Source of the DNA: a virus
Taxonomy: Duplodnaviria > Heunggongvirae > Uroviricota > Caudoviricetes
IMG/VR virus record: IMGVR_UViG_3300036715_001196
Coordinates: 1-64,000 of that record
Length of the DNA: 64,000 nucleotides
Strand: one strand, 5' to 3'
Shown: positions 6,499 to 38,885 of the stretch, one piece after another
Position numbering within the stretch: position 1 is the stretch's first letter
Layout: every line of letters begins with the position of its first letter
Translations under genes and position numbers: made by a program
Notes under the pieces: generated by a model
The model's database searches: none
What the model was told of the DNA's origin: nothing
Seen by the model: the letters and a program-made list of their open reading frames with translations, nothing else

Positions 6499-6753
6499 AT
6501 GATTTTAGAACTATTTACAATCATTGTTGTTGCTGTAGTGGCATACTACATAATATCACAAATTGTTATTCCGACGATTAGTGATACACCGATTCTTCCG
6601 ATGTTTCGGAAGAATGATGTAAACAAGAAAATTAGTCGCTTAAAGCAGGAATTAGAAAAGGTAGCAAATCAAGGGCAGTTAGATGCTTTAAACAATGAAG
6701 TTCAACGCCGAAAGGCAGAATTGGAGAAAAGAAATGCTAAATCTAAACCTTAA
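6499..6753 (+). CDS. small membrane protein with coiled-coil tail
   Basis: N-terminal TM helix ILELFTIIVVAVVAYYIISQIVI. Stop overlaps the downstream SPFH gene start. Confidence 0.45.
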   Translation: MILELFTIIVVAVVAYYIISQIVIPTISDTPILPMFRKNDVNKKISRLKQELEKVANQGQLDALNNEVQRRKAELEKRNAKSKP

Positions 6754-7960
6754 GAAAATAGGTTTACTCGTACTTAGTGCTATTACGTTTTTGATTGCAC
6801 TGATTATTGTTCCACAACTATTCACTAATGTGGATGCGAAACAGATTGTTGTATTGCAAACAATTACAGGTAAGTTGGAATGTTTAACTGCACCTGGGTG
6901 GACTTGGCAAGGTATAGGTAAATTAACACATTACCCACGACGAGATCAGTTTTCGTTTAGTTCTGCTATAGACCAAGGTAAGGCAGTCGACGAGTCAATC
7001 CAAACACGATTCAACGATGGCGGCCATGCGAATATCAGCGGTACTATTAACTGGGCAATGCCATTGTCGTGCGAAAAGATTATTTCATTACATAAAGATT
7101 TTGGCAGCGTAAATGCTATTGAGCAGCAATTGATGCGTACAGCCGTTCAGAAAGTTATTTATAATGTTGGACCTACAATGAGCTCTACTGAAAGTTCAGC
7201 TGAAAAACGGCCCGATATTCCAAAATACATCGATGACCAATTAGTGAACGGTACATACTTAACAAAGACTGTTCAACACACTGAAAAAGACGCAATTACT
7301 GGCCAAGACAAAATTGTAAATGTTGTCACTATTGCAATGGATGAATCCGGTAAAGCTGCTCGTGAAAGTAAGAGCCAATTAACTGAATACGGGTTAGTGT
7401 TGCAACCTGTTGCAATTAATACAATCAAATACAGTGATGATGTTGAAAAACAAATCACTGAACGACAAAAGGCTACCACAGCGGTGCAAATCAGCAAGGC
7501 TAATGCAATTAAGGCAGAGCAAGAAAAATTGACCACAATTAGTCAAGGTGAAGCTAATGCAGCAAAAGCAAAGTGGGAACAGGAAGTTGAAAATGCTAAA
7601 ACTATTGCAACTGCACAGGCTAAAGTTACAATTGCTGATGCAAGTGTGAAAGAAGCAGAAGCATTTAAGAAAGCTGAGATCTTACGTGGTGAAGGTGAAG
7701 CAACTCGCAAGAAATTAGTTATGGAAGCTGATGGCGCCCTTTCTCCTAAACTGGATGCATTAGTAAAGATTAACGAAATGTATGCTAATGCTATTAAAAA
7801 CGCAGCACCTGGTGCTTGGTCTCCGAGTATAGTAATGGGTGGATCTGGTAGTAATGCAGGTCAGGGTGCAAACGCTTTAATCGAAATGATGACCGCTAAA
7901 ACTGCAAAAGATCTTGGTATTGATATGTCAGTAACACGCGGGGCAACTACTAAGAAGTAA
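6734..7960 (+). CDS. SPFH/band-7 (prohibitin/flotillin/HflK-like) membrane protein
   Basis: N-terminal TM helix, then a band-7-like core. C-terminal A/E/K-rich coiled coil (AKAEQEKL...AEILRGEGEATRKKL) typical of HflK/C and YqiK-type SPFH proteins. RBS GGAGAAAAGAAATG. Confidence 0.65.
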   Translation: MLNLNLKKIGLLVLSAITFLIALIIVPQLFTNVDAKQIVVLQTITGKLECLTAPGWTWQGIGKLTHYPRRDQFSFSSAIDQGKAVDESIQTRFNDGGHANISGTINWAMPLSCEKIISLHKDFGSVNAIEQQLMRTAVQKVIYNVGPTMSSTESSAEKRPDIPKYIDDQLVNGTYLTKTVQHTEKDAITGQDKIVNVVTIAMDESGKAARESKSQLTEYGLVLQPVAINTIKYSDDVEKQITERQKATTAVQISKANAIKAEQEKLTTISQGEANAAKAKWEQEVENAKTIATAQAKVTIADASVKEAEAFKKAEILRGEGEATRKKLVMEADGALSPKLDALVKINEMYANAIKNAAPGAWSPSIVMGGSGSNAGQGANALIEMMTAKTAKDLGIDMSVTRGATTKK

Positions 7961-9501: not shown

Positions 9502-9969
9502 ATGGAAATTATTAAAGGTAATTTAATTGATCTTGCACAACAAGGCCGATTTAATGTAATCATACATGGTGCGAATTGTTTTAATACCATGTCAAGCGGA
9601 ATTGCGAAAGAAATCAGAGCTCGCTATCCAAAAGCATACGAAGTTGATTGTGAAACAGTGGCCGGCGATCGTGCCAAATTAGGCACATATACAACTATGT
9701 TTGGTTTACGATTTAATATTATAAATGCATATACACAATACGGCTACGGTCGCAAGACTGAAGATGATGACTTATTCGAATACGAAGCATTTGCATTGAT
9801 TCTAGAAAGATTACAAAAGCAATATAAGGGCGTTGGTCGGTTTGGTTTCCCTTTGATAGGTTGCGGATTGGCAGGCGGGGATAAAACTCGCATCGTCGGA
9901 ATGATCGAAGATTTTGCTAAGGCAGTTGAAGCAGATGGCAGTACTGTAACAATAGTAGAATTCGGTTAA
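9502..9969 (+). CDS. macro-domain protein (ADP-ribose binding/processing, Appr-1''-p family)
   Basis: VIIHGANCFNTMSSGIAKEI matches the macro-domain VNAAN...GGGVA signature. GCGLAGGD glycine-rich loop. RBS AAGGAAAGAAAAATG. Confidence 0.75.
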   Translation: MEIIKGNLIDLAQQGRFNVIIHGANCFNTMSSGIAKEIRARYPKAYEVDCETVAGDRAKLGTYTTMFGLRFNIINAYTQYGYGRKTEDDDLFEYEAFALILERLQKQYKGVGRFGFPLIGCGLAGGDKTRIVGMIEDFAKAVEADGSTVTIVEFG

Positions 9970-11170: not shown

Positions 11171-11389
11171 ATGGAAAAATATGAACAGAAATACCCGTCC
11201 GCTTATTATCTATACAGATTTAAAGATGGCGAGAAATTTCATTATGTTACCCATAACGGAATTCGGACACGGCATGCCAGTATGGATAAAGCGTTAGGCG
11301 TCTGTGAGCGTATTAATAAAGAAGCAGGTTTGCCCGACATTAATGTATATAAAAGTAATAAATTTACGCTAAGGAGAACTGATGTTTAA
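11171..11389 (+). CDS. hypothetical protein
   Basis: ATG after AAGGAAAACGTT. Upstream TTGACT-N17-TATAAT promoter. Confidence 0.4.
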   Translation: MEKYEQKYPSAYYLYRFKDGEKFHYVTHNGIRTRHASMDKALGVCERINKEAGLPDINVYKSNKFTLRRTDV

Positions 11390-12623
11390 ACGACTTATCA
11401 TGCTATTTGCACTATTATTATCAATTAGTGCTTTTGCATTTGATTTACCAAAACCGTCTGAAGTGAAGGCAGTATATGCTTCGGGAGATTATGCTCGAGC
11501 AGAAATGTTGTTAAAGCAGGTTATGGTTGAACGACCAACCGCACCAGTACATTATCAATTAGGTCAAGTTTATTCAAAACAAGGTAAACATAAAGATGCT
11601 CTAAACGAGTTTAGGCAGGCACAGGCACTAGATCCTAGCTTAAAATTTGCGTCAAGTGCAGCAGCATTTACACGAGCACTAGCTGATGAGCAGACTATTG
11701 TCGCACCACAGCCAATAACAACTTCACAGCCGCAACACTCGCAGCGACAAGCTAATTCTCCAAATTCTGGCGAAGCCGGACAATTCTTTGTAATTCTATT
11801 TTTGTTACTTATTGCAGGTGCAGCTATTTATGGTATCTACTATCTTGTAACTACTATTAGGCATAAGAAAGCCATAGCACAGCAAGCTGATGACGAGCTT
11901 TCTAAGAAAAATTCTAATTTATTAGATTTATCAAAGCAACTCGACGATGCCTTACTCATTGCAAAAACTGCAAACTATAGCGAAGCAGATAAATTACAAA
12001 TTACACAACGTATTACGAGTCTCCAAGGCCAAGTTCGTAGTATATTAGCTGACCTAAAGGACGGTGAAGATATTTCGGCATATCGTATCTATACAGTTGA
12101 AGCGAATGTGCGTGAAGTTATAGAGCAGGCCACAAACGGTTTACCGGTGCCTGTTAGAGAAGACTCTATTTATAGTCCCAAAGCCCGCCGGAAAAATTCG
12201 AGTAAGAACAGAATGCTACCACCTGCTCCACCGCCCCCACCAGCTCCATGTCAGGTACGTGAAGGTGATAGAGTTGTTCGTCCGGACGCTGCACCAGCAT
12301 ACCAGTCAACACCTGCTCCTGCTTCTGCTCCTGTTATTGTAAATAATACTAGTTCTGGAAGTTCAGATTTATTAACAGGTATGATGATTGGTGAAATGAT
12401 GCACTCACATCGTGACAATGAACGTACAGTATATGTCGAACGTGAAGTATATTTGCCGCCAACAAGGACATCGCGCATTGATACAAACGATGATGACGAT
12501 ACATACACTGCACCAAGTCGGTCGTCAACACTTGATACAGACAATGACCGTAGTGATAGTTATACAACAGATTCATCAAGTATCGATTCGAGCTCTACTA
12601 GTGGCAACGACGATAGCTATTAA
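11382..12623 (+). CDS. membrane protein with N-terminal TPR-like region, central TM helix and Pro/Ser/Asp-rich tail
   Basis: Signal/TM N-terminus. TPR-like HYQLGQVYSKQGKHKDALNEFRQAQALDP. TM FFVILFLLLIAGAAIYGIYYLV. PPAPPPPPAP and S/D/T-rich C-terminus. Confidence 0.5.
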   Translation: MFKRLIMLFALLLSISAFAFDLPKPSEVKAVYASGDYARAEMLLKQVMVERPTAPVHYQLGQVYSKQGKHKDALNEFRQAQALDPSLKFASSAAAFTRALADEQTIVAPQPITTSQPQHSQRQANSPNSGEAGQFFVILFLLLIAGAAIYGIYYLVTTIRHKKAIAQQADDELSKKNSNLLDLSKQLDDALLIAKTANYSEADKLQITQRITSLQGQVRSILADLKDGEDISAYRIYTVEANVREVIEQATNGLPVPVREDSIYSPKARRKNSSKNRMLPPAPPPPPAPCQVREGDRVVRPDAAPAYQSTPAPASAPVIVNNTSSGSSDLLTGMMIGEMMHSHRDNERTVYVEREVYLPPTRTSRIDTNDDDDTYTAPSRSSTLDTDNDRSDSYTTDSSSIDSSSTSGNDDSY

Positions 12624-12654
12624 TTCACAACTCAACTCAACTGAAGGGAATATC

Positions 12655-13308
12655 ATGTCTTTATTACAAAAAATTATGCACACACTTAAAGGTTCTGCAA
12701 ACGACTTAGTCGATGCTCACCAAGACCTAGGTGCAAATGCACGCCAAAGTGTTCGTGATCTAGACGAACAACTTCAAGCAGCAGATAAGGCGTTAATTGA
12801 TGTACGTGCTGAAGCAGAAGTATTGAAGGGTAAAAAGCAAAAAGCAGAAACTGAAGTTGCAAAATGGTTACAGGCTGCATCAAATGCAGCAGGTAAAGAT
12901 GATAACTTAGCTCGCGAATGTTTGGCTAAGAAAGCATCAGCAAAAGCAAACCTAGATGCTCTTACACAATCATTGGATAAATTCCAACCTACTGTGACCG
13001 CATTAGAAACACGCATTACACAATTACGTTCACAGCGTGACGGTTTGTCTAATCAAGCTGACTTGATCGGTGTTCGTAGCGAAGTAGCAGATGTTGAATT
13101 ACGTACAGCTGAAATTCTAGGCAGTACAAACTTAGAAACAAGTTTAGTTGCACAAGAAGATGCACTTGCACGCAAAGAAGCCAGGGCGCATGCATCTAGT
13201 GCGATTTTGCAAGAACGTACCGGTCAAGCTTTGGAAAGCCGTGTTGCTGCATTAACTGCAGGTCCAAGTATTGAAGACGAACTTGCTGCCTTAAAGGCGT
13301 CTAAATAA
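12655..13308 (+). CDS. PspA/IM30 (phage shock protein A / Vipp1) family protein
   Basis: 217-aa all-coiled-coil protein. ATG at 12655 with RBS GAAGGGAATATC. LARECLAKK resembles the PspA LAREAL..K segment. Overall heptad architecture matches PspA. Confidence 0.5.
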   Translation: MSLLQKIMHTLKGSANDLVDAHQDLGANARQSVRDLDEQLQAADKALIDVRAEAEVLKGKKQKAETEVAKWLQAASNAAGKDDNLARECLAKKASAKANLDALTQSLDKFQPTVTALETRITQLRSQRDGLSNQADLIGVRSEVADVELRTAEILGSTNLETSLVAQEDALARKEARAHASSAILQERTGQALESRVAALTAGPSIEDELAALKASK

Positions 13309-15044: not shown

Positions 15045-15581
15045 TTATTCAGGCACTGCAAGCAATCGCACTAACATCCTGACACTCTCGGATATGGAAT
15101 GACAATTGGTATCAATTTCTAAATCTGCATTTACAGGTATTTCATATGGCGATGTAATACCCGTGAAATGTTCTATCTGCAGCGCACGCGCTTTTTTATA
15201 CATACCTTTCGGGTCTCGCTGTTCGCAAATCTCAAGAGGCGTTTTAATGTACACCAGGCGAAAATTTTCTTCGCCAATGATGATCTTGGCTATTTGGCGA
15301 TCTGCCTCAAACGGCGCAATTACGGGCACTATCACGACTAAACCTGCATCATTCATCAGACGCGACACTTCCGCAACACGCCGAACGTTTTCTGCGCGAT
15401 CTTCAACACTGAACCCCAGATCTTTATTGAGTCCTCGGCGTAGATGATCGCCATCTAACACGCAACATGGAATTTGCTGGTCGAGTAAACACTTTTCAAA
15501 ATGCTGTGCCAAGGTTGACTTGCCGGATCCACTCAGACCAGTCAGCCAAATTGTCACGGCGGCGTTCTTTCGAAAAATCAT
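15045..15581 (-). CDS. cysC: adenylyl-sulfate (APS) kinase
   Basis: P-loop LTGLSGSGKSTLA and overall length/architecture of CysC-type APS kinase. Confidence 0.8.
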   Translation of the reverse strand: MIFRKNAAVTIWLTGLSGSGKSTLAQHFEKCLLDQQIPCCVLDGDHLRRGLNKDLGFSVEDRAENVRRVAEVSRLMNDAGLVVIVPVIAPFEADRQIAKIIIGEENFRLVYIKTPLEICEQRDPKGMYKKARALQIEHFTGITSPYEIPVNADLEIDTNCHSISESVRMLVRLLAVPE

Positions 15582-15676: not shown

Positions 15677-17227
15677 TTATCCCTTTGTCCAGACATAAAC
15701 AGCATTACCCGAATTCCAATATCTATCAAACCCGTTATTTCGCATATTTTCCCAGGCTGACAAACTACTATCAAATATATTAAGCACATTTTTTAATTTA
15801 TATTTTTGATATTTTATTCTAGATTCTAATGTTTTATAGTTATGTGTATATACATAGGAAGCAGGATTATTTCGTATGTGCTTAAATCCTAATTTTTCAT
15901 AAACCTTTCCGGTTCCCCATCGTAAATCACAAAACGAGACTACATCTGATGCATTTAAACATTGAGTTGCAAAATTAAATAATTTTGAAGCTCCACCTAT
16001 TACATTAATATTTAATTCATTACAAAACCTAATTAATTCATATTGGTGCCTGTTATATCTAGATTTGCCTAAACTTATCGCAGCAACTAATCTTCCTTCA
16101 TAATGCAGGCCTGCATAAAAAGACGCACCGGTGTGGCCTTGTATATGGTTTTCATTAAAAAATCTTGCTGCAATTTTCTTATCGATTATATTAACTGTAG
16201 TCTTCCTTGCATATATTCGAGAGCTAACACCTACAAATGATGCTATCCTAGATTTTACTAAATCTCGCTTATTGTTCCACTCTATATCTATAATATGATA
16301 TAATTTTATACCTACAGATTTTGCAACTGAATCTTTTTCGGTGTGATAATTAATTTTATTTGCCGACTCTTCTGAATGCCAAAAAATACCGTCATATTCA
16401 AAACCAATTCCTAATTCGGGTAAATAGATATCTATTTCTTTACCCGAAAGTGCTTTCCTATCATTGAAGATAATAGGACCACTATATATAGATGTTATGT
16501 AATCAAACATTTGTTGTTGGCCAACTGTTTGATGAATTTCAATACCTAAATTTTTAAATTGTACACAAAGTTGAGTATGCCCTACTTCTAATTTATCGGC
16601 TATCTCTTTTATGGATAATCCGCCGTCATACAATTCACTAAGCTTCTGTTTATCGTATTTGATATTGAACGATTCGTTACTAAGATGTTCTTGATTCTTT
16701 CTTATACGACCGTACCGTTCAATGCATGTATTTGTAATCTTTTCTTTGGTTGAACCAAGCATAGCGATATTAGTTACACCGTGTTCTTCAAACAGTCGGT
16801 CTTTTATTTCTTTTTGAACATTTGCTGACTTAAATGGATTATCGACGCCGAATTTTTCTATCATCTTTTTAGAATAATTTAATTTTGCAGCCTCTGTCAT
16901 TAATATAGTTTTTGAACCATATTTTTTTAAACACGTAGTTTCTATTCTATCTCTAATAGCTGTATCTGATTGTACACATTTAGGTGAACAGAAAATCCTG
17001 TATGAATTATTCTTATAATTCCAGTTAAGTGTATTACCACACTTACAGAATTTTTCTGTAAATTGATCATTTATAACATGCCATAACCGTTGCTTTGTTT
17101 TAGAATCAGGTGGTAGAAATGCAGTTTTTTCCTGAAGTGTTGCCATAAAGGTTTCGTTTGACATGAACGACTTTAATGCCTTAAAATTGCTATCTGCAAC
17201 ACAATAATCTTGTTTTGTAGGTCTCAT
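15677..17227 (-). CDS. large endonuclease-like protein with N-terminal Cys cluster, KYG repeats and a Vsr/PD-(D/E)xK-like core (paralog 1)
   Basis: KFCKCGNT...CSPKC zinc-finger-like N-terminus. Repeated KYG...DNP...K units. Core DIYLPELGIGFEYDGIFWHSE. C-terminal domain IYARK...HIQG...GGASKLF shared with ORF 22377-23864. Confidence 0.55.
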   Translation of the reverse strand: MRPTKQDYCVADSNFKALKSFMSNETFMATLQEKTAFLPPDSKTKQRLWHVINDQFTEKFCKCGNTLNWNYKNNSYRIFCSPKCVQSDTAIRDRIETTCLKKYGSKTILMTEAAKLNYSKKMIEKFGVDNPFKSANVQKEIKDRLFEEHGVTNIAMLGSTKEKITNTCIERYGRIRKNQEHLSNESFNIKYDKQKLSELYDGGLSIKEIADKLEVGHTQLCVQFKNLGIEIHQTVGQQQMFDYITSIYSGPIIFNDRKALSGKEIDIYLPELGIGFEYDGIFWHSEESANKINYHTEKDSVAKSVGIKLYHIIDIEWNNKRDLVKSRIASFVGVSSRIYARKTTVNIIDKKIAARFFNENHIQGHTGASFYAGLHYEGRLVAAISLGKSRYNRHQYELIRFCNELNINVIGGASKLFNFATQCLNASDVVSFCDLRWGTGKVYEKLGFKHIRNNPASYVYTHNYKTLESRIKYQKYKLKNVLNIFDSSLSAWENMRNNGFDRYWNSGNAVYVWTKG

Positions 17228-17374: not shown

Positions 17375-18478
17375 ATGGCAGCTTCAGATGATACAGGTAT
17401 TCGCGCAGAACGCGCTCGTGACGTTCGCACACTTTTGATCCGTTGCATGGAAGTTGGTCGACCTGCAATGATATGGGGTGCACCTGGCGTCGGTAAATCA
17501 GATCTAATTGCTAGCATTGGTAAAGAGATGAATCGCCCAGTGATTGACATGCGTTTGCTCTTGCTGGAACCAACTGACATCAAAGGTATTCCGTATTTTG
17601 ATCCAGACACAAAAACAATGAAGTGGGCGCAACCAAGCGATTTACCAACTGAAACATTTTTGAGCAATGCAATTTTGTTCTTAGATGAAATCAATGCTGC
17701 TCCGCCAAGTGTTCAGGCCGCTGCATATCAGTTGATTTTGAATCGTCGCGTTGGCGAATATCATTTGCCAAAAAATGTGTCAATGTTGTGTGCAGGTAAT
17801 CGCGATAGCGACAAAGGTGTTACATATCGTATGCCGAGTCCGCTGGCAAATCGTCTGGTACACATTGAGATGCGTGCTGACTTCGAAGATTGGCAACAAT
17901 GGGCAATTATGTCCAAAGTTCATCCAGATGTTGTTGGTTTCTTGTCACACCACAAACAACACTTGTTCAACTTTAACCCAAGGTCGCCTGATAAGGCATT
18001 TGCTACACCACGTTCATGGGCGTTTGTATCACAGTTGATCTCCGACAATTTGCCAGAATCAATGAACACTACTTTGGTATCAGGTACGGTCGGGTCAGGC
18101 TTGGCAACTGAATTTACAGCACACCGCAAAGTGTCTGCTAAAATGCCAAAGGCTGAAGATGTGTTGTTGGGCAAAGAAAAATCATTGAACGTCAAAGAAC
18201 TGAGTGCTATGTACTCATTGACAATTTCATTGTGCTACACATTGCAAGAATGGTACCACCGAGCAGCAGATGTGCAAGAAACAGAATTTAGTATTGCTGA
18301 CTGGCACAAATGCGTTGACAACTTCTTTACATTCATGATGGATAATTTCCAAACTGAAATGACTGTATTGGGCGCGAAGGTTGCATTGCGTGATTACAAG
18401 TTGAAGATCAATCACCGTGATTTGAAAACGTTCAAGACATTTCATGACAAATTTGGATCTTATATCTTAGAGGACTAA
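17375..18478 (+). CDS. MoxR-like AAA+ ATPase
   Basis: Walker A GAPGVGKS, Walker B ILFLDEINAAPP, sensor-2-like LCAGNRD. MoxR/RavA-type architecture. Confidence 0.75.
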   Translation: MAASDDTGIRAERARDVRTLLIRCMEVGRPAMIWGAPGVGKSDLIASIGKEMNRPVIDMRLLLLEPTDIKGIPYFDPDTKTMKWAQPSDLPTETFLSNAILFLDEINAAPPSVQAAAYQLILNRRVGEYHLPKNVSMLCAGNRDSDKGVTYRMPSPLANRLVHIEMRADFEDWQQWAIMSKVHPDVVGFLSHHKQHLFNFNPRSPDKAFATPRSWAFVSQLISDNLPESMNTTLVSGTVGSGLATEFTAHRKVSAKMPKAEDVLLGKEKSLNVKELSAMYSLTISLCYTLQEWYHRAADVQETEFSIADWHKCVDNFFTFMMDNFQTEMTVLGAKVALRDYKLKINHRDLKTFKTFHDKFGSYILED

Positions 18479-18540: not shown

Positions 18541-18960
18541 TCATAATTGTTTAATTTTTGAGACGGATTCTCTACGCTAAATCTTTCTAAACAAGTCTCT
18601 TTATATTTTTCACGATTATTATAATTCTCGGTATCATACCTATCCTCTTTAGTTTTAGCTGCTTTAGCTAATCGAGGTTTTGCATTAGCTGTGTTCTTCT
18701 CTGAAACTGATTTTGCTACCGCTGGTATTTATAATTGATGACTGACTCCATATTTAGTTTGAAATGTTTCTTTCTTTGTATCTTTAACTGATTGGAGAGA
18801 ATTAGTTGCCTCTACTCCGTAATTAACTAAGTTACTTGTCTTTATTTTTGCCTGCACACTAACTGCATTTTTAGCTGATTGTATGCCTATTACATCCTTT
18901 ATAGTTTGTAGTTTAGAGACATTGTCAACCCCGTATAATAACATATTGGTCTCTTTTCTT
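18536..18960 (-). pseudogene. decayed remnant of a third KYG-repeat endonuclease-like paralog
   Basis: Minus-strand ORF 18729-18944 contains KYG-repeat units (YGVDNVSKLQTIKD, NYGVEATNSLQSVKD, KYGVSHQ). A further unit (KYKETCLERFSVENPSQKLNNYE) continues in a different frame below 18728. Frameshifted and truncated. Confidence 0.4.
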
Positions 18961-19245
18961 TTTGCTGTTATAGCAGCAATATCTTTATTTTATATGTATC
19001 TTTATACTTGAGTTTGGTTGAACTAGTTTTACATTCATCGCAGCAATATCTTTTATAATTTCCGTATTTGTCTTTCAAGGATGTGTTTGTGCATGTTCGG
19101 TTTTCGGTTTTCGCATTTGTGTGTTTTTATAATTCTAGACATTATTTCTCCATAATAGAATGTCTTAGTTTATAACATCATTTCTACCTAAGACCAATTA
19201 TTCATCACCTATTGACATATGTTTATAAACATGTAATAATACTAT

Positions 19246-19500
19246 ATGCAAGTTAAAAAGACAGAATTTAGGTTAGTGTTACTAAATGCAGGGACTACTA
19301 GTTCTGTGTGGCGAAACTTTAACACTGATATAATTAATAGTTATGGTAGTTCTTACAATCATTATACATGGAAGAAAACATTAGGATATGAACTTTCAAA
19401 ATATAATGCCGAATACACGTTTATGGATGATGATGCAAAGTTATGTGCATATTTCGAAACTGAAGAAGATATGGCTTTCTTTGTTCTTAAATGGAGTTAG
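19246..19500 (+). CDS. FETEED-family small protein, tandem copy 1 of 6
   Basis: 84 aa ending FETEEDMAFFVLKWS. Confidence 0.5.
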   Translation: MQVKKTEFRLVLLNAGTTSSVWRNFNTDIINSYGSSYNHYTWKKTLGYELSKYNAEYTFMDDDAKLCAYFETEEDMAFFVLKWS

Positions 19501-19501
19501 G

Positions 19502-19723
19502 ATGTATAAACTATTGATAGATATTAGTAACCTTAATGACTGGCGTACTCCGTTATTTGCTAAATTTGTTAATTCAGTCGGTTTAGAATTTGGTGGGCAC
19601 TGTAATTGGGATGATGTGCGTACTGCGCTATCTAGATACCATGCAATACTCGACGATTTTAAATGTAATCTTTTATTTGAAACTGAAGAAGACATGTCTT
19701 TCTTTGTACTCACTTATTCATAA
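19502..19723 (+). CDS. FETEED-family small protein, copy 2
   Basis: MYKLLIDIS..., ends LFETEEDMSFFVLTYS. ATG 1 nt after the upstream stop. Confidence 0.5.
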   Translation: MYKLLIDISNLNDWRTPLFAKFVNSVGLEFGGHCNWDDVRTALSRYHAILDDFKCNLLFETEEDMSFFVLTYS

Positions 19724-19938
19724 TGAAATATATCTTAGATGTTACTGGTATTCACAAAGATGTATGGTATAATTTTATAGGCCATGTAATTGAATTATTT
19801 GTGGACATACACCGACTACCTGATCTTAATACTGTGTTAATTACCGAATTATCAAAATATAAAGGATTAATTAGCAACAAAGGATTAAGCTTTGAAACTG
19901 AAGAGGACGCAACTTATTTTGTACTTAAATGGAATTAA
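19723..19938 (+). CDS. FETEED-family small protein, copy 3
   Basis: Ends FETEEDATYFVLKWN. Confidence 0.5.
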   Translation: MKYILDVTGIHKDVWYNFIGHVIELFVDIHRLPDLNTVLITELSKYKGLISNKGLSFETEEDATYFVLKWN

Positions 19939-19940
19939 TA

Positions 19941-20180
19941 ATGGTTATATTACTTATAGATGACCCGAACAATAAAGACCACTCAGGATGTTGGTGTACT
20001 CCATTATGGTTAAATTTTACAGACTCTATTACAGGAAAACATAGGTCTTTCGATAATAACGACTGGACCAAGATACTTAGAGAATTAAACAGATTAGATA
20101 TATGTGTAGATAACGGTTTAAATTATCTCATATTTAAATCCGAAGTAGACAAATTAGCATTTGCACTTAAGTGGGGTTAG
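19941..20180 (+). CDS. FETEED-family small protein, copy 4 (divergent)
   Basis: Ends FKSEVDKLAFALKWG. Same length class and position in the array. Confidence 0.45.
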   Translation: MVILLIDDPNNKDHSGCWCTPLWLNFTDSITGKHRSFDNNDWTKILRELNRLDICVDNGLNYLIFKSEVDKLAFALKWG

Positions 20181-20181
20181 G

Positions 20182-20406
20182 ATGTATAAATTACTAATAT
20201 TTGATGCTAACGATAATGCCTGTTATACTAAAGTATTTAAGAATTTTCATAAAGAATTATTAGAAGAGTTTGGTTGCAACGTAACATGGACTGATGCAGA
20301 GTCAATACTTAAACCAAGGTACGATGCCTTACTTGATGAATTCTATGATAATATTTTATTTAATTCTGAAGAAGACATGACTTTCTTTGTACTTACTTAT
20401 TCATAA
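20182..20406 (+). CDS. FETEED-family small protein, copy 5
   Basis: MYKLLIFDAN..., ends FNSEEDMTFFVLTYS. Confidence 0.5.
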   Translation: MYKLLIFDANDNACYTKVFKNFHKELLEEFGCNVTWTDAESILKPRYDALLDEFYDNILFNSEEDMTFFVLTYS

Positions 20407-20663
20407 TGGCTCATATTTTAAAAAGTGCAGTTAATAAGGCATATATCTTAAAAACACGACCATTGTCTAACCAGACATCTAATATATGGCGAAATTTTTA
20501 TAATGATACATTTTTTGGCCGGAACTTAGCAGAAGTTGTAAATATAGATGGTTGTCTTGAAATAGAACTTTTAAAATATAATGCTACTATTGATAATTCA
20601 TGGCACGAAATTCTATTTGAAACTGAAGAAGATATGACATTCTTTGTACTTAAGTGGTCTTGA
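20406..20663 (+). CDS. FETEED-family small protein, copy 6
   Basis: Ends FETEEDMTFFVLKWS. Confidence 0.5.
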   Translation: MAHILKSAVNKAYILKTRPLSNQTSNIWRNFYNDTFFGRNLAEVVNIDGCLEIELLKYNATIDNSWHEILFETEEDMTFFVLKWS

Positions 20664-20687
20664 CATCTTACACTGTTATGCTATAAT
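20660..20687 (+). promoter_or_regulatory. sigma70-type promoter (TTGACA-N16-TATAAT)
   Basis: TTGACATCTTACACTGTTATGCTATAAT upstream of ORF 20741. Confidence 0.5.
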
Positions 20688-20740: not shown

Positions 20741-20983
20741 ATGGCACGATATACATTAAAGACATTTTATGGTTCTAAACCAGTTGAAAGATTTGACCAC
20801 AGAAAGCCTGAAAAATTAAGAAGCATTATATCACATCCGCGGTTTTCTAAATTAACAGAAACAGATGCATACGGGGTAGTTGACGAGGTTCCTGATCTTT
20901 TCGAAGTATATGATTCATACATGGAAAAAGTCCATTCTGGTAATTTAACTGATACATGCACATTTATTAAGACATTAAAATAA
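20741..20983 (+). CDS. hypothetical protein
   Basis: 80-aa ORF with GAGGCGAATAATG RBS. Confidence 0.4.
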   Translation: MARYTLKTFYGSKPVERFDHRKPEKLRSIISHPRFSKLTETDAYGVVDEVPDLFEVYDSYMEKVHSGNLTDTCTFIKTLK

Positions 20984-20986: not shown

Positions 20987-21454
20987 ATGTCTAATCTATG
21001 GGATCACTTACCAAATGCAAAACATATTGATGCAATACTTGCATCAGTTAAAGCACACCCGGAAGAATGGAGTGCGGCGTGGGATGCGACAAGTGGTGCG
21101 GCGTGGGGTGCGGCAAGGAATGCGGCAAGGCGCGCGGCGTGGGAGGCGGCAAGGGATGCCGCCTCGGATGCGGCAGGTGGTGCGGCAAGGGTTGCGGCAT
21201 ATTATGCGGCAAGGGATGCGGCGTGGGATGCGGCAAGGGATGCGGCAAGTAGTGCGGCAAGTGGTGCGGCAAGTAGTGCGGCGTGTGATGCAATACTTGC
21301 CCTTATTGCATATGATGATTGCGCATATATGCTCGACTCACATCCGGGTGAACTTGAAATCCTTGCTAAGTTTGGTGATGAAAGAGCAATACTTTTATTA
21401 CCTGCATGTAAGGCATTTGCAGCTATTAAGATACATAAACCAGTTATTGCTTAA
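20987..21454 (+). CDS. HEAT-like repeat protein, family A member 3
   Basis: [28 protein letters not shown]. Long A/R/D/W/S repeat core. Conserved C-term. Stop overlaps the TTAACA -35. Confidence 0.8.
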   Translation: MSNLWDHLPNAKHIDAILASVKAHPEEWSAAWDATSGAAWGAARNAARRAAWEAARDAASDAAGGAARVAAYYAARDAAWDAARDAASSAASGAASSAACDAILALIAYDDCAYMLDSHPGELEILAKFGDERAILLLPACKAFAAIKIHKPVIA

Positions 21455-21479
21455 CAAATGATTCCAAGTATCATATAAT
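21451..21479 (+). promoter_or_regulatory. family-A cassette promoter (TTAACA-N17-TATAAT)
   Basis: TTAACAAATGATTCCAAGTATCATATAAT followed by the conserved UTR ACTACACATTAAACAAGCAGGAGCATAAAATG. Confidence 0.6.
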
Positions 21480-21509: not shown

Positions 21510-21929
21510 ATGCCTAATCTATGGGATCACTTACCAAATGCGAAACATATTGATGCAATACTTGCATCAGTTAAAGCACACCCAAAAGAATGGGGTGCGG
21601 AGTGGAATGCGGAGTGGGATGCGGCGTGGGATCGGGCAAGGGGTGCGGCGTGGGATGCGGCAAGGGAAGCGGCAAGGGAAGCGGCTAGGGATGCGGCGTG
21701 GGGTGAAGCAAGGGATGCGACATGGGATGCGGCATATTATGCGGCAAGGGTTGCGGCATGGGATGCAATCATTGCCCTTATTGCATATGACGATTGTGCA
21801 TATATGCTTGATTCAGATCTAGGTGAACTTGAAATACTTGCTAAATTCGGTGATGAGAGAGCAATTTTATTATTACCTGCATGTAAGGCATTTGCAGCTA
21901 TTAAGGAAAAAACATATGTCAATAGTTGA
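21510..21929 (+). CDS. HEAT-like repeat protein, family A member 4
   Basis: [28 protein letters not shown]. Repeats. Conserved C-term. Confidence 0.8.
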
Positions 21930-22359
21930 AAATAAAAAAGCATTTTACGATTATGGCATAGAAGAACAATTTGAAGCTGGCCTAATTCTACAAGGTTGGG
22001 AAGTAAAAGCAATTCGTGCGGGTCAGGTACAATTAAAAGAAGCCTATATAATTATCAAAGGCGAAGAATTGTATTTATTTGGGGCACATATAAGGTCACT
22101 TATAACGACCTCAACAACTGTTAATACTGATCCTATACGCTCACGCAAATTACTGTTAAAATCTGCAGAAATTAGTAAGCTCATAGGTAAGGTTACACGA
22201 GCCGGATATACTCTCGTACCGCTCAACCTACATTTTCAAAATGGTAAAATTAAATGTCAAGTTGGATTAGCTAAAGGTAAGAGATTGTATGATAAGCGCC
22301 AAACAGAAAAAGAACGTGATTGGCAACGTGAACAACAAAAAATTTTAAAACAGAGATAA
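21916..22359 (+). CDS. smpB: SsrA-binding protein SmpB
   Basis: Near-collinear match to bacterial SmpB: KKAxxDY.IEE..EAG..L.G.EVK..R.G...L...Y, then DP.R.RKLLL...EI.KL.GKV...GYTLVPL.L.F.NG..K...LAKGK.L.DKR...K.RDWQRE. Start overlaps the end of the family-A gene. Confidence 0.8.
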
Positions 22360-22376: not shown

Positions 22377-23864
22377 ATGATAGGCATATTAAGAAACCTA
22401 TATAACACTACATCTGCAAATATCCTTGCAATTACATTAAAGCATAAACATAAAGAAATTTATGATTGGGTGATCTCTTCTACTGACGATAATTTTTTAA
22501 CATTCAACGAACGTGTTTTTTGGTTATTAAACCCATCTAATATTATCTGTGAAAATAATAAAAGACTAAAATATGTAGCAAAAAGAAAAGAATACGGTTT
22601 TTGTGGCGGACCGAATACATGTGAATGTCACAAGGCAGAAATTAAAGATCGAACCAGTAAAACCACTGTATTCGGCACCGAGGATTTTCTTGAGAAGAGA
22701 AAAGAAACCTGGACTGAAAAATACGGAACTGATAATCCGCAAAAATTACAAGAATACAAAGATTCGGCTACAGAAAGAAATACAGGTAAAGTGCATACTA
22801 AAGGTAAAAGACTCGAATATGTCGCAGATGGATATAATAAAGTCATAGCAAGGTTAAAGGACGAGTTCATACCCTTATTCACTGTAGACGAATACTTAGG
22901 CTCCGATCGTAAAAACGTATATAAATGGCAATGTGTTAAATGCTCTAAGATTGTTGATTCGCACATAGACTACGAAACTGTTCCAAGATGTACAATCTGT
23001 AATCCAAAAGAAGTGTCGACACCCGAACACGAATTAAGAGAGTATCTTGATTCATTTAATATCGCATATGAATGCAATGTTACAAACATTATTCCACCGC
23101 TTGAATTAGACATTTTTGTACCTACATTAAATGTTGCTATAGAGCACAACGGAACCTACTGGCATTCTTCAAAGAAAAAAGATAAAAATTATCATATTAA
23201 CAAATACAATATATGTAAAGAAAAAGGCATACACCTTATTCAGATATTCGGCGACCAATGGAAAAATAAACAAGATATTGTTAAAGCTAGATTAAAAAAT
23301 GTACTAGGTGTTGATACTAAAATTTATGCACGTAAATGCGATATAAAAGTTATAACAGGTAAAGAAAGTAAATTATTTTTAGATGAGCACCACATTCAAG
23401 GATGGGTATCGTCTAGTATAAAGTTAGGATTATTCTTTAACGATAATCTAGTTGCAGTAATGACATTTGGTAAACCTCGGTACGGAAATTTACAATCTTA
23501 CGAACTTTTACGATTTTGTTCTATCAATACCATTGTTGGTGGTGCTGATAAACTTTTCAAATACTTTTTAAGAAACTATAAACCTGATACTGTTGTCTCG
23601 TATGCCGATCGTTGCTGGTCGGCAGGTAATTTATATAAAAAATTAGGATTTAAAGATGTAACTGAGGATAAAAATAATATTGGGTACTTTTATATAAAAA
23701 ACGATACACGGATTAATAGGCTAGCATATACTAAGAAAAAATTAGTTAGTTTAGGTTTTGATTCAGAAAAAACCGCAGAAGAAATATTAGAATCTGAAGG
23801 ATTTCTATTAATCCATACCTGCGGCAATTATAAATTTATCTACGACAATAATCGCTTGACGTAA
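22377..23864 (+). CDS. large endonuclease-like protein with KYG repeats and a Vsr/PD-(D/E)xK-like core (paralog 2)
   Basis: Cys cluster CGGPNTCECH. KYG-type repeats (TEKYGTDNPQKLQEYKD). C-terminal IYARKCDIKVI...HHIQGW...GGADKLF collinear with the minus-strand paralog at 15677-17227. Confidence 0.55.
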   Translation: MIGILRNLYNTTSANILAITLKHKHKEIYDWVISSTDDNFLTFNERVFWLLNPSNIICENNKRLKYVAKRKEYGFCGGPNTCECHKAEIKDRTSKTTVFGTEDFLEKRKETWTEKYGTDNPQKLQEYKDSATERNTGKVHTKGKRLEYVADGYNKVIARLKDEFIPLFTVDEYLGSDRKNVYKWQCVKCSKIVDSHIDYETVPRCTICNPKEVSTPEHELREYLDSFNIAYECNVTNIIPPLELDIFVPTLNVAIEHNGTYWHSSKKKDKNYHINKYNICKEKGIHLIQIFGDQWKNKQDIVKARLKNVLGVDTKIYARKCDIKVITGKESKLFLDEHHIQGWVSSSIKLGLFFNDNLVAVMTFGKPRYGNLQSYELLRFCSINTIVGGADKLFKYFLRNYKPDTVVSYADRCWSAGNLYKKLGFKDVTEDKNNIGYFYIKNDTRINRLAYTKKKLVSLGFDSEKTAEEILESEGFLLIHTCGNYKFIYDNNRLT

Positions 23865-23915: not shown

Positions 23916-25097
23916 ATGGCAAACAACAACTCAAAAGAAGCTGTTTTAGACCAGTTGACACGAGCACGCATCTCCCTTTTATTAAAACAGCCGTTTTGGG
24001 GAACTCTTGCAACTCGGTTGATCTTAAAAGATGCAACCGACGAAGAGTGGTGCAACACTGCTGCTACAGACGGTCGATATTTCTACTACAACCGGGATTT
24101 TATTAGCAAATTAACTAAACCGGAAACAGTGTTTTTGGTAGCTCATGAAGTAGAACATTGCGTCTACGACCACATGAGTCGTCGTGGTAGTCGTAGACCG
24201 CAGATGTGGAATGCTGCTGCTGACTATGTAATTAATTATGAGCTGCACGAATTTGGTGTAGGTGAATTACCTAATCCAAAGACATCTGGTGTTCAGGCAT
24301 GTTTTGATGCAAAATATAAAGGCATGTTTGCTGAAGAAGTTTACGAATTGTTGTTAAAAGCCCCCGATGCAAAATTTCCAGAATTTGACATTCACTTGGA
24401 ACCAGGTGATAGCAAAGGTGAGCCGATGACTGAAGAAGAACGTCGAGTATTAGGTGACGAAATTCGTGGTGCTGTTATGCAAGCTGCTAAGGCTGCTGGT
24501 GCAGGTAATGTTCCTGCAGGTGTGAAACGCATGTTGAAAGACTTAACAAATCCACAAATGGATTGGCGCGAATTACTGAATATGCAGATTCGGTCAATGA
24601 TTAAAAATGATTTTACTTGGCAACGTTGTTCACGTAAGAGCCAAGCAAGTGGTATTTACTTGCCCGGTACAAAAGAAGACACTCGCATCGAAGCAGCAAT
24701 TGCAATCGACACATCTGGTTCAATGAGTGAAGATATGCTTCGTGATTTGTTAAGCGAAACAAAGGGCATTATGGAGCAATTTACAGACTTTAAATTGCGA
24801 GTATGGTGCTTTGATACAAAAGTTTATAATGAAGTTATGTTTACACCAGATAATATCGACGACATCGATACATACGAAATTAAGGGAGGTGGTGGCACAG
24901 ATTTTATTTGTAATTGGAAATACATGAAAGAAAACGACATCATGCCAGAACGCTTCGTTATGTTCACTGATGGTTATAATTGTCAAACATCATGGGGTGA
25001 TCCAGATTATTGTGATACTTTGTTTATTGTACACGGTGATCCGCACCACAAATTGCAAGGTGATTTTGGTACTACTGCCTGGTATCACAACGAGTAA
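23916..25097 (+). CDS. metallopeptidase-domain + VWA-domain protein (DUF2201-type partner of MoxR ATPases)
   Basis: HExxH zinc motif (VAHEVEHCVYDH) in the N-terminal half. MIDAS-type DTSGSMS motif in the C-terminal VWA half. Architecture typical of MoxR-associated VWA proteins. Confidence 0.7.
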   Translation: MANNNSKEAVLDQLTRARISLLLKQPFWGTLATRLILKDATDEEWCNTAATDGRYFYYNRDFISKLTKPETVFLVAHEVEHCVYDHMSRRGSRRPQMWNAAADYVINYELHEFGVGELPNPKTSGVQACFDAKYKGMFAEEVYELLLKAPDAKFPEFDIHLEPGDSKGEPMTEEERRVLGDEIRGAVMQAAKAAGAGNVPAGVKRMLKDLTNPQMDWRELLNMQIRSMIKNDFTWQRCSRKSQASGIYLPGTKEDTRIEAAIAIDTSGSMSEDMLRDLLSETKGIMEQFTDFKLRVWCFDTKVYNEVMFTPDNIDDIDTYEIKGGGGTDFICNWKYMKENDIMPERFVMFTDGYNCQTSWGDPDYCDTLFIVHGDPHHKLQGDFGTTAWYHNE

Positions 25098-25779: not shown

Positions 25780-26370
25780 ATGTCCGACGTACTTATACTC
25801 AACGCAAGTGGGGAACCTAAGTCACTAATACCGCTTTCAGTAGTGCCGTGGCAAGATGCTGTACGTCTAGTTTTTCTTGATAAAGCAAGAGTGCTAAAGA
25901 ATTATGACAATTGGGTAGTTAGATCACAATATCTTGATATGCCAGTGCCGTCGATCATTATTATGACAGAGCAAGTTAAGTGGAATAAAACGCTTAAATA
26001 CAGCAGGCAAAACGTGTACTTAAGGGACGACTTTACATGCCAATTGCAAAGTACTCGCAGGTGTAAAGAAGTAAAAGGTAAGGTAAAAATTACCGAATTA
26101 ACAATTGATCACGTATTGCCAAAAAGTTTGGGCGGTAAAACAAACTGGACAAATGTTTGCACATCATGTAAGGATTGCAACAGCGACAAAGGTGCAGATA
26201 AATCAATTGTACCGAAGAAAATCCCGCATCGGCCATCTTACTATGAAATGCTAGCAAAAAGGAAACATTTGCCTATAACTATACGTGATGTTGAATGGAA
26301 GTGCTACATCGACTGGCCTGATGAGTTGATAAAGGTTTTACCACAACCAACAGGATCACCAAATGGCTAA
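25780..26370 (+). CDS. HNH endonuclease
   Basis: C..C ... DHVLPKSLGG..NWTN...CKDCNSDKG: HNH-type His/Asn and Cys-pair arrangement. Confidence 0.6.
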   Translation: MSDVLILNASGEPKSLIPLSVVPWQDAVRLVFLDKARVLKNYDNWVVRSQYLDMPVPSIIIMTEQVKWNKTLKYSRQNVYLRDDFTCQLQSTRRCKEVKGKVKITELTIDHVLPKSLGGKTNWTNVCTSCKDCNSDKGADKSIVPKKIPHRPSYYEMLAKRKHLPITIRDVEWKCYIDWPDELIKVLPQPTGSPNG

Positions 26371-26373
26371 CAG

Positions 26374-26406
26374 TATTACATAAGAAAAGGGGCTCTTAAA
26401 GCCCCT
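26374..26406 (+). terminator. rho-independent terminator
   Basis: AAAAGGGGCTCTTAAAGCCCCTTTTCTT hairpin + T run. Confidence 0.7.
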
Positions 26407-26522
26407 TTTCTTATGTAATACATTAATTTCTACCAATAAAATAGTATTTTCCTGTACGAAAAAGATAAATAAACATAGCATATAATATAATGCTTCATTT
26501 TAAAATTACAGGAGAACATAAA

Positions 26523-30691: not shown

Positions 30692-30731
30692 ACCTGTTGA
30701 CGTTACTGCACATATGTAGTAAAATGTGTGC

Positions 30732-31508
30732 ATGAAGACTCTAATTATAGCGATGTGTTTATTAGGTTCTGTTAGTTCTCCTACAGAAGCTAAAATACGA
30801 CACCATCACAAAACACACCAAGTACCTGCTTTTAGCGCAAAGAGTTTTGTTGTTGCAGACGAAACAGGCGTTGTTATAAAAGAAAAGGGTGGCGATACTA
30901 TAAGGCCCATTGCCTCTATCTCTAAATTAATGATCGGTTTGATAGCGGCAGACCAAAATCTCAATGAAATACTGAACATACCTCAGATAAGGTTAGTACA
31001 AAGTAAAATACCAAAAGAAACAAAAACAATGACACGCCGTGAATTATTAACATTAGCACTTGTTAAGTCTGATAATTTCGCAGCACAAATCCTGTGCTTA
31101 AATTTAGATAACTGTGTTATGCAAATGAATACAAAGGCTACAGAATTAGGTATGTCTAATACCAAGTATGTAGAACCCACTGGCTTAGATGTTAGAAATG
31201 TTAGTACAGCGAAAGATTTAGTAAAATTAGTGGTGGTTGCTGCATCAAACCCGACAATTACCGAAATATCAAGTATGCCTGATGCCGAAATATACACATC
31301 AAACAAAACAATCAAAATAAGAAATACTAACCCACTTACAGCAAAATTAGATATATTGCTATCTAAAACAGGATTTACTGATCCGGCCGGTGGATGTCTA
31401 GTTATGGTACTTAAATTAAAAATCGGGCATAAGATATTTGTATTATTAGGCAGTAAGAATGCACATACGAGAATACCTGATATGCTTAAATTAATAAAGG
31501 AAGTATGA
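30732..31508 (+). CDS. D-alanyl-D-alanine carboxypeptidase/endopeptidase, peptidase S11 (PBP fold) with signal peptide
   Basis: SxxK (ASISK), SxN (SDN) and KTG (KTGFT) active-site motifs in canonical order and spacing. N-terminal signal peptide. Confidence 0.75.
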   Translation: MKTLIIAMCLLGSVSSPTEAKIRHHHKTHQVPAFSAKSFVVADETGVVIKEKGGDTIRPIASISKLMIGLIAADQNLNEILNIPQIRLVQSKIPKETKTMTRRELLTLALVKSDNFAAQILCLNLDNCVMQMNTKATELGMSNTKYVEPTGLDVRNVSTAKDLVKLVVVAASNPTITEISSMPDAEIYTSNKTIKIRNTNPLTAKLDILLSKTGFTDPAGGCLVMVLKLKIGHKIFVLLGSKNAHTRIPDMLKLIKEV

Positions 31509-34579: not shown

Positions 34580-35028
34580 AAGTCTATATAGCATTATTAA
34601 AAATAGATGTAAAGAAGGTTATTGCTGTTATATTAACTAGTAATTATAAATATAATGGCCAACTTGTATCATGCACTAAAACATATTGATCAGTTGCCAC
34701 CGCGGCAAGGTGGCAGCTAAAGACCATTGCAGCTGGTAGATCCCATAAGAAATATACAGGGCCGTTACACTTCGTGAAAATACAGAAAAAATTATACAGA
34801 AGATCTTTACCAATATTTAAGAAACTTTTCGAAGATAAATAAAATATATAGAAAATTGACAAACATAATACATTTATGTACAATAACAAGTAACAACACT
34901 AAGGAATACAATGAAAGAGCTTTTAACAATACTCTATTACGAATTTTATTGCAATTTTGTATTTTCTTTGTTATCTCCTCAATACATACAGGTATATTAT
35001 CCTGTATTACTTAGTTAACTAACATCTC

Positions 35029-35104
35029 CGGCGTTCGTATAGTGGATAATACAGCGTTCTTCTAAAGCGTGAACAGGGATTCGATTTCTCTACGCCGGAC
35101 CACA
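35029..35104 (+). pseudogene. tRNA-like remnant (intact acceptor and D arms, candidate UCU anticodon, broken T arm)
   Basis: CCGGCGT...ACGCCGG-A-CCA: a perfect 7-bp acceptor stem with 3' ACCA. D arm GTAT-AGTGGATA-ATAC. Anticodon loop CTTCTAA. No canonical T stem can be formed. Followed directly by a terminator. Confidence 0.25.
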
Positions 35105-35946: not shown

Positions 35947-36034
35947 GGGTCAGACGCACTATTGGAGGGATGCCCTGAACTCATAATTCAGTCGCGAAAG
36001 CGCCATGTCGGTTCGAACCCGACCTGACCTACCA
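35947..36034 (+). tRNA. tRNA, anticodon CAU (Met/Ile2-type) with an unusually long variable arm, encoded CCA
   Basis: Acceptor GGGTCAG/CTGACCT (G1-U72). D arm GCA-CTATTGGAGGGA-TGC. Anticodon arm CTGAA-CTCATAA-TTCAG (U33, CAU, A37). Extra arm CGCG-AAA-GCGC. T arm GTCGG-TTCGAAC-CCGAC. Discriminator A + CCA. 88 nt. Confidence 0.6.
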
Positions 36035-38694: not shown

Positions 38695-38885
38695 TGACAA
38701 AATTTGACTTTTCAATTAGTAACGACAAAGGGTGCTATATTACAGTAACAAGATTAATCGATAATGCTATTAAGGTTTTTTATTTGGTTGGTAGTCGTGA
38801 TAAAATTGTAATGACAGACTTCATGAATAATATTACAGATGAGCAAGCAGACGGCTATTTTCCAAAAGAAAGAAAAAAGAAATGA
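38682..38885 (+). CDS. hypothetical protein
   Basis: 67-aa ORF overlapping the family-A gene end. Confidence 0.35.
   Translation: MQKLMTKFDFSISNDKGCYITVTRLIDNAIKVFYLVGSRDKIVMTDFMNNITDEQADGYFPKERKKK

Follow-up and report, generated by a model that had tools for sequence, protein, structure and literature searches.

A full-length smpB gene in a PA5oct-like large phage, with its nearest cellular relatives in Undibacterium and other Oxalobacteraceae and the same location in three diverged phage lineages

Trans-translation requires the protein SmpB stoichiometrically with transfer-messenger RNA (tmRNA). Phage tmRNA genes are better documented than phage SmpB and have been described in the mycobacteriophage Bxz1 group, in Bacillus phage G (PMC4131195, PMC12484599) and in the Methylophilales phage Melnitz (PMC9004378), where one half of the trans-translation pair has been proposed to maintain the hijacked translation machinery. 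These phages carry the RNA, with no SmpB reported. In contrast, the phage considered here carries the protein, with no tmRNA visible. Its smpB gene was found in a 64,000-nt stretch of a Caudoviricetes record (IMG/VR IMGVR_UViG_3300036715_001196, positions 1 to 64,000; the whole stretch is hereafter called the window). The open reading frame (ORF) is confirmed to be a bona fide full-length SmpB with a complete C-terminal tail. We consider it somewhat better than an even prospect that it represents a functional phage-borne ortholog, predicted to be expressed early and to pair with host tmRNA, which would sustain ribosome rescue during infection.

Al-Shayeb et al. (2020; PMC7162821) included tmRNAs and SmpB in their list of huge-phage translation genes, and SsrA-binding proteins are annotated at least eight times in the genomes that they deposited. 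The PHROGs database contains an SmpB family labelled 'unknown function', and the literature that we searched contained no paper analysing or testing a phage SmpB. Within the GenBank phage collection 67 records contain SmpB. The gene is internal in 15 Lak megaphages and in five uncultured phages of 635–735 kb; most of the other records are either temperate phages whose SmpB gene lies some 500 nt or less from a record end or short unannotated fragments, which from their coordinates we read as host flanks or as uninformative. The huge phages, including the Prevotella phages Lak-A/B/C, resemble the present case in that SmpB is internal to a large, lytic-type genome and stands beside other translation genes. 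However, their SmpBs are only 33–39% identical to that of the window, are of Bacteroidetes or Firmicutes type and belong to genomes of 540–735 kb. By comparison, the window gene appears to be a separate and recent capture from Betaproteobacteria in a relative of Pseudomonas phage PA5oct (Arenbergviridae, Wroclawvirus), a group whose cultured members (about 286 kb) lack SmpB; PA5oct-type GenBank records gave no SmpB match. The finding is less novel than an earlier sequence-only reading of this stretch implied, because SmpB in huge phages was already in the literature (PMC7162821).

The 147-amino-acid product matches Pfam PF01668 (SmpB) over the entire profile (1–143 of 143; E 2.2e-55, 186.9 bits against a cut-off of 27) and lies above the cut-off of both NCBIfam equivalogs (NF003843, 202.3 bits, cut-off 130; TIGR00086, 174.6 bits, cut-off 119). 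With phmmer against solved structures, residues 3–146 aligned without a gap to residues 14–157 of E. coli SmpB in the ribosome-bound tmRNA-SmpB complexes 6Q98/7ACJ (E ~5e-43, 47% identity), so that E. coli numbering equals window numbering plus 11. The sequence-only reading had called the ORF collinear with bacterial SmpB along its whole length, tail included, and the full profile match, the gapless alignment and the tail residues described below bear this out. An identical protein is encoded on four other metagenome contigs from four samples.

The ATG of smpB lies 14 nt within the upstream ORF, which terminates beyond it (Table 1), as had been noted from the sequence alone. This upstream ORF belongs to a group of about 19 paralogs in 64 kb, here called family A. 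A dependence of smpB on frameshifting or readthrough from the family-A gene, for which the sequence-only reading had suggested a check, is not needed and was rejected. The gene possesses an AAGGA of its own, 8 nt ahead of the ATG, the protein begins in line with the MSI... start of its bacterial counterparts, and in a related phage (L001, described below) smpB is free-standing. The start sites of the relatives consist of AAGGAG with a 10-nt overlap in lineage L012, and of AAGG with a 141-nt spacer and no overlap in L001. Overlap is thus a lineage-specific trait, not a regulatory device that has been conserved. A longer in-frame ORF from a GTG at 21823 (178 amino acids) was also discarded, as nothing in SmpB corresponds to the 31 residues that it adds, and these overlap family A in a different reading frame.

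Residues with an assigned role in trans-translation were then located in the window protein. According to a review (PMC4151336), an aromatic residue at position 136 serves EF-Tu activation, with H136Y having only a minor effect in E. coli, and D137-K138-R139, K143, R145, R153 and W147 are required for accommodation and tagging; the corresponding window residues are Y125 (=H136), D126-K127-R128, K132, R134, K142 (=R153) and W136 (=W147). A cryo-EM study (PMC8363625) adds His22, Tyr24, Tyr55, the Gly132 hinge, K134 and Q135, with Tyr24 and the aromatic residue 55 positioning the tmRNA resume codon and His22 stacking in the decoding centre. Here the window protein has Y11, Y13 (=Y24), Y44 (=Y55), G121, R123 and L124, the tyrosine in place of His22 retaining aromatic character. 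The mapped tail comprises G121, K122, R123, L124, Y125, D126-K127-R128, K132, R134, W136, K142, I143 and L144, so that the hinge, the DKR motif, the basic residues and the tryptophan are all in place, and the tail determinants (DKR, K143, R145, W147, aromatic 136 and hinge Gly in E. coli numbering) are kept in all three phage lineages. Both the tail and the frame-setting tyrosines are therefore present, and by residue type the three altered decoding-centre contacts should still be able to stack or carry charge.

Conservation is strongest exactly at the ribosome and tmRNA contact residues. This argues against a use of the SmpB fold outside ribosome rescue, such as a regulatory role (RNA-binding or transcription-factor-like) together with the co-transcribed family-A proteins; we consider such a use quite improbable. 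It would find support in the linkage to family A, conserved in all three lineages, and in the tmRNA-independent functions of SmpB that two reports claim for Aeromonas (PMC11722516, PMC7270562). However, with so many family-A copies across the window, the adjacency may just reflect their abundance.

The gene is located within phage DNA and not at a prophage-host junction. It lies 21 kb from the nearest window end with phage backbone genes on both sides, and PHROG families are matched throughout the window. The order of a MoxR-type AAA ATPase gene, variable small genes, an endonuclease-like gene of about 495 amino acids and a DUF2201/VWA gene is that of PA5oct gp335-gp340, and the radical-SAM and RNaseH-type genes upstream also match the PA5oct neighbourhood. 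In PA5oct, however, the slot between the ATPase and endonuclease-like genes is occupied by three small membrane ORFs unrelated to SmpB, and neither SmpB nor family A is found, so the slot taken by the window smpB is a variable, accessory one within a conserved backbone. PA5oct gp336-338 were considered as diverged SmpB or family-A homologs and rejected, being small membrane proteins without similarity to either. Carriage of smpB as cargo of the adjacent 495-amino-acid endonuclease-like gene was likewise rejected, since that gene is syntenic in PA5oct, which has no smpB, and is absent between smpB and the DUF2201 gene in L001, which has it.

The same smpB junctions occur on four contigs from four samples and in three diverged lineages, and no homolog of the canonical bacterial neighbours ratA and rnfH was found in the window or in the related contigs L001-L006. 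Most GenBank 'phage' SmpB matches would suit the explanation that smpB is not phage-encoded at all, but part of a prophage's host flank or of an assembly chimera, as they stand at the record ends of temperate phages. For instance, in Klebsiella ST437-OXA245phi4.1 and Staphylococcus StauST398-5 SmpB is annotated in a 'phage' record, yet it lies no more than about 500 nt from the end, in the host flank of an ssrA-adjacent prophage. The window gene is instead internal and phage-adapted, with a G+C content at third codon positions (GC3) of 0.22, no ratA or rnfH neighbours and no ssrA, and together with the repeated junctions this makes an artefact barely credible.

The variable slot also contains a tandem array (19246-20663) formed by six paralogs of about 71–111 amino acids, each with a C-terminal motif resembling FETEEDMxFFVLKWS, for which no Pfam or PHROG match was found. 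To its left, 18556-19147 on the minus strand is an apparent remnant of an endonuclease-type gene, with 65% nucleotide identity to an intact 335-amino-acid gene of L001 (1284-2291) that is inverted relative to it; the only ORF left open is of 71 amino acids (18729-18944). Two phrog_3339 'homing endonuclease'-like genes with DUF7487 repeats, at 15677-17227 (minus strand) and 22377-23864 (plus strand), share 39% identity across their C-terminal halves. As the latter is syntenic with PA5oct gp339, it may belong to the fixed backbone and not be mobile.

The gene was found at the same place in three diverged phage lineages, namely the window, L001/L002 (73% amino acid identity) and L012 (79% amino acid identity). 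Backbone genes of L001/L002 are 78–82% identical to those of the window at the amino acid level and 68–76% at the nucleotide level. A block consisting of an 80-amino-acid gene, two family-A genes and smpB is conserved between the window and L001, and L012 keeps the orthologous family-A gene. In a search of 5.8 billion proteins the nearest cellular SmpBs were those of Undibacterium and other Oxalobacteraceae, which share 71–75% identity over their full length, the domain, the tail motifs and a near-identical length with the window protein. They differ in genomic context and composition: one such homolog lies in the canonical ratA-rnfH-smpB arrangement and GC3 is about 0.5, whereas the window gene stands among phage accessory genes. 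At positions invariant in 118 bacterial homologs, the three phage proteins have in common the changes of R48 (to Q, Q and N), A76 (to T) and P82 (to T, A and T), and their C-terminus is two residues shorter than in the bacterial clade; the window lineage additionally has H22Y, F25G, H79T and Q135L.

In a bootstrapped neighbour-joining tree of a reduced taxon set, the window and L012 proteins paired in 98% of replicates, and the three phage SmpBs were monophyletic in 147 of 200 (74%), nested among Undibacterium sequences on long branches. A first neighbour-joining tree of 125 taxa had not united L001 with the window clade, for which reason a single origin is favoured and not proven. Between the window and L001 genes the proportion of nonsynonymous differences (pN) is 0.174 and that of synonymous differences (pS) 0.78, which is saturated, giving a pN/pS of about 0.22. 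GC3 of smpB is 0.22 in the window, 0.30 in L012 and 0.44 in L001, against 0.49–0.52 in the bacterial gene, and in each lineage it matches that of the phage's own genes. Slot, tree, shared changes, pN versus pS and GC3 combined argue for one capture before the split of the three lineages and long purifying selection afterwards. An ancestor shared by three or more related PA5oct-like large phages would thus have captured smpB from an Undibacterium-like (Oxalobacteraceae) host, and selection would have kept it since. The hypervariable nature of the slot, filled by other ORFs in PA5oct, is what might be expected if smpB were a recently captured host gene travelling as a neutral passenger without a role in infection. 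We give this little credence, as the gene has stayed in the same place in three lineages that have diverged to synonymous saturation, with an intact frame, constrained replacement sites and phage-adapted codon usage, and an independent phage clade also retains SmpB.

That second clade of betaproteobacterial-type phage SmpBs (L004/L005, P0121-P0134) is found on contigs of up to about 350 kb with a G+C content of 0.48–0.50, and its closest bacterial matches are Betaproteobacteria at 61–66% identity. As in the window, a full-length SmpB occurs in phage context; in this clade its gene immediately follows those for a MoxR-type ATPase and a VWA protein. However, its members are 53–54% identical to the window SmpB, have another backbone and G+C content and grouped with the window clade in 0 of 200 bootstraps. 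In L004 (6486-10450) smpB follows the MoxR-type ATPase gene and the gene for a 666-amino-acid VWA-like protein, and in the window it lies between the MoxR ATPase and DUF2201/VWA genes; this flank, common to both clades, may be a coincidence or a shared hotspot.

Matches to the sigma-70 promoter consensus at 11 or more of 12 positions number 38 on the plus strand and one on the minus strand of the whole window, where composition-matched shuffles led us to expect 2.1 +/- 1.4. Perfect TTGACA-N16/17-TATAAT promoters occur 16 times on the plus strand against 0.07 expected. Such a density has the signature of an early region that would be read by host RNA polymerase. One of the perfect promoters precedes the block that ends in smpB and has a positional analogue in L001 (2288-2315), and a near-consensus promoter precedes the adjacent family-A gene (Table 1). 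No terminator-like site was found between these promoters, at 20660 and 21451, and the smpB block. The smpB gene, which closes the block as its final small gene, is thus predicted to be transcribed early by host RNA polymerase acting at consensus sigma-70 promoters, and to be translated from its own AAGGA and ATG.

No tmRNA was found in the window with ARAGORN, under default settings or relaxed to 85%, nor with Rfam, at the gathering score or at E<=10, and neither program gave a tRNA-like-domain fragment; the sequence-only reading, which saw no convincing tmRNA here, was correct on this point. The search was equally empty in the flanks that other contigs supplied (6.5 kb on the left and 0.9 kb on the right, 7.4 kb in all; ARAGORN), in the SmpB-bearing relatives with two further related phage loci (~70 kb of related loci), and next to tRNA genes. 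Absence from window, flanks and relatives fits use of the host RNA, and host tmRNA is the presumed partner of the phage SmpB. The T-loop-like hairpin GGGTTCGAAACCC near 39897, which the sequence-only reading had called tRNA-like but lacking a matching acceptor partner, is part of a noncoding gap of 330 nt, closed by a terminator with a perfect promoter after it. Searched alone (431-nt query), the gap matched no tRNA or tmRNA model, and its folding energy is unremarkable (z -1.36). We accordingly rejected the hairpin as a tmRNA or tRNA-like-domain fragment; the terminator is ordinary and the promoter of consensus type.

Only two tRNAs were called in the window by ARAGORN. A tRNA-Arg(TCT) at 35028-35102 is a solid call. 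The other, a tRNA-Met(CAT) of 88 nt at 35947-36034 on the plus strand, has a long extra arm, its D stem is weak (3 bp), and the Rfam tRNA model did not match it even at E<=10; it could be a false positive, an unusual tRNA or a gene of the tRNA-Ile2 type. No other translation-factor gene was present among 30 window ORFs scanned with Pfam.

With host tmRNA as the partner, the gene product would bind the tRNA-like domain of that RNA and carry it into stalled ribosomes as host SmpB does. Messenger RNA decay or RNA-cleaving host defences would create non-stop messages during infection. Host shut-off and mRNA degradation would then lead to more non-stop complexes while cutting the supply of SmpB, and a phage-supplied SmpB would sustain trans-translation, and hence the pool of free ribosomes, once host gene expression is shut down, preserving ribosome availability. 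A boost or redirection of ribosome rescue, with a tmRNA encoded by the host or elsewhere, had been proposed from the sequence alone and is consistent with this evidence.

Several points weigh against a functional ortholog working with host tmRNA. The first is coverage: about 72 kb were covered out of a probable total of some 280 kb, leaving about three quarters of the genome unseen (the longest contig on record is 77.7 kb, and the closest cultured relatives, PA5oct and its kin, have 284–288 kb). A phage tmRNA elsewhere in the genome thus keeps some probability. The phage SmpB could mainly pair with it, possibly with a different tag, as a private trans-translation pair. Phage tmRNAs are known from mycobacteriophages, Bacillus phage G (PMC4131195, PMC12484599) and Melnitz (PMC9004378), Al-Shayeb et al. 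name both components among huge-phage genes, and only about one quarter of the expected genome is visible here. The relaxed searches of the window, the 7.4-kb flanks and the ~70 kb of related loci nonetheless gave no such RNA, and at 71–75% identity to the SmpB of the probable host the phage protein makes a private partner unnecessary. We regard such a pair as doubtful, although it is the most probable of the rival explanations, followed in falling order by an antagonist or decoy, a moonlighting role, a neutral passenger and an artefact.

The second point is that the constraint implied by a pN/pS of about 0.22 is not particularly strict, and that the phage SmpBs sit on long branches. The third concerns the substitutions. 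The window protein departs from near-invariant positions of the donor clade (H22Y, F25G, K/R48Q, H79T, K134R and Q135L), and at position 25 all 118 close bacterial homologs, like E. coli SmpB, have phenylalanine, where the window protein has glycine. Several of these changes touch the decoding centre or adjoin frame-setting residues, and the activity could be altered and non-canonical. F25G and H79T occur in the window lineage only, and they are not sequencing errors, since the four other contigs from four samples encode the identical protein.

An antagonist or decoy would titrate host tmRNA or block stalled ribosomes, sparing phage proteins, or would bait defences that sense tmRNA-SmpB. The loss of the invariant basic residue at E. 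coli position 48 in all three phage copies would fit this, as would the changes at H22, F25, H79 and Q135 in the window copy, and CoCoNuTs (PMC11090510) are host defences with SmpB-like domains predicted to engage tmRNA. However, the tail determinants of productive accommodation are kept in all three lineages, although a decoy would not need them, and F25G and H79T are confined to one lineage, which renders this explanation improbable. It is also unlikely, in our estimation, that the phage variant re-programmes rescue, whether by favouring stalls on phage messages, by using an unrecognised phage RNA partner, or by shielding host tmRNA or baiting CoCoNuT-type defences. This idea stems from the shared loss at position 48, A76T and P82T/A, and from H22Y, Q135L, H136Y and the replacement of F25 beside Tyr24 in the window. 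If it were true, trans-translation would be a direct battleground between phage and host.

Table 1. Features at and around smpB in the window, with the family-A copies and perfect promoters of the whole window
Feature	Position	Strand	Remarks
MoxR-type AAA ATPase gene, backbone, left of slot	17375..18478	+	56% identical to PA5oct ATPase; phrog_1297 E 9e-98; 78% identical in L001
Perfect sigma-70 promoter, TTGACA-16-TATAAT with TG	20660..20687	+	upstream of block of 80-amino-acid gene, two family-A genes and smpB
80-amino-acid gene, first of block	20741..20983	+	47.5% identical homolog at same position in L001/L002
Second family-A paralog of block, 155 amino acids	20987..21454	+	L001 likewise with two family-A genes upstream of smpB
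Near-consensus promoter, TTAACA-17-TATAAT, 11/12	21451..21479	+	upstream of family-A gene preceding smpB
Family-A paralog directly upstream of smpB, 139 amino acids	21510..21929	+	no Pfam family; ortholog precedes smpB in L012
Shine-Dalgarno-like AAGGA	21903..21907	+	8 nt 5' of smpB ATG, within family-A coding sequence; read from sequence
smpB coding sequence, 147 amino acids and TAA	21916..22359	+	ATG start; PF01668, NCBIfam equivalogs, gapless E. coli alignment
Overlap of smpB start and family-A gene end, 14 nt	21916..21929	+	family-A TGA at 21927-21929
Hinge Gly121 and C-terminal tail, residues 121-147 (E. coli 132-158 equivalents)	22276..22356	+	residue map
phrog_3339 'homing endonuclease'-like gene, 495 amino acids, directly downstream of smpB	22377..23864	+	syntenic with PA5oct gp339
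DUF2201 metallopeptidase/VWA gene, backbone, right of slot	23916..25097	+	PF13203, PF09967; syntenic with PA5oct gp340; 82% identical in L001
Family-A copies (1)	4283-4702, 4811-5200, 20987-21454, 21510-21929, 38215-38694, 38882-39265, 43044-43487, 43543-44013, 44069-44464		
Family-A copies (2)	44526-45014, 45474-45836, 47644-48048, 48526-48936, 51887-52297, 52886-53257, 61050-61424, 62590-62778, 63708-64000		
16 perfect promoters	9974, 13341, 20660, 33645, 35556, 40028, 41544, 43484, 44010, 44461, 50584, 53254, 61421, 61969, 62775, 63649	+	

The members of family A have a conserved N-terminus, a variable core of Ala/Trp/Asp/Arg repeats (AAWDAARDAA...) and a highly conserved C-terminal module that is about 90% identical at the nucleotide level between copies. 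Many copies are preceded by perfect sigma-70 promoters. Family A belongs to no Pfam family and gave no tblastn match in GenBank phages, and its PHROG matches span the low-complexity repeat only.

Elsewhere in the window, an adenylylsulfate (APS) kinase gene of CysC type (15045-15581, minus strand; Pfam E 7e-61) lies on the strand opposite to nearly all other genes and is a host-type sulfur-assimilation auxiliary gene. Genes for an SPFH/Band-7 protein (6695-7960), a TPR protein (11382-12623) and a PspA/IM30-family protein (12412-13308) lie close together and may form a membrane-stress module. Cell-wall functions are represented by a D-Ala-D-Ala carboxypeptidase (Peptidase_S11, E 2e-33; 30726-31508) and a SleB-type hydrolase (Hydrolase_2; 37030-37575). 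A near-perfect palindrome at 26368-26426, following an HNH gene (25780-26370), matched the same Rfam hairpin model on both strands and is probably a bidirectional terminator. A Macro-domain protein is encoded at 9502-9969. The radical-SAM gene (1540-2496) is in the position of the PA5oct 7-carboxy-7-deazaguanine synthase, which hints at a deazaguanine DNA-modification pathway.

Until now phage SmpB has been no more than an entry in lists of huge-phage genes. New in the present case is that smpB was recently captured from a nameable donor in a PA5oct-like lineage, conserved in three lineages and apparently with no tmRNA nearby. The second, independent capture of betaproteobacterial type suggests recurrent selection for SmpB function in jumbo phages. 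The gene can also serve as a host-assignment marker for an uncultured, freshwater-type group of jumbo phages related to PA5oct. Current understanding is not overturned, and specialists will be little surprised. Because of the named donor, the maintenance in three lineages, the host-type early promoters and the lack of a visible tmRNA, however, the locus offers a clean test of whether phages top up ribosome rescue, and a good experimental entry to the question of why large phages carry ribosome-rescue genes.

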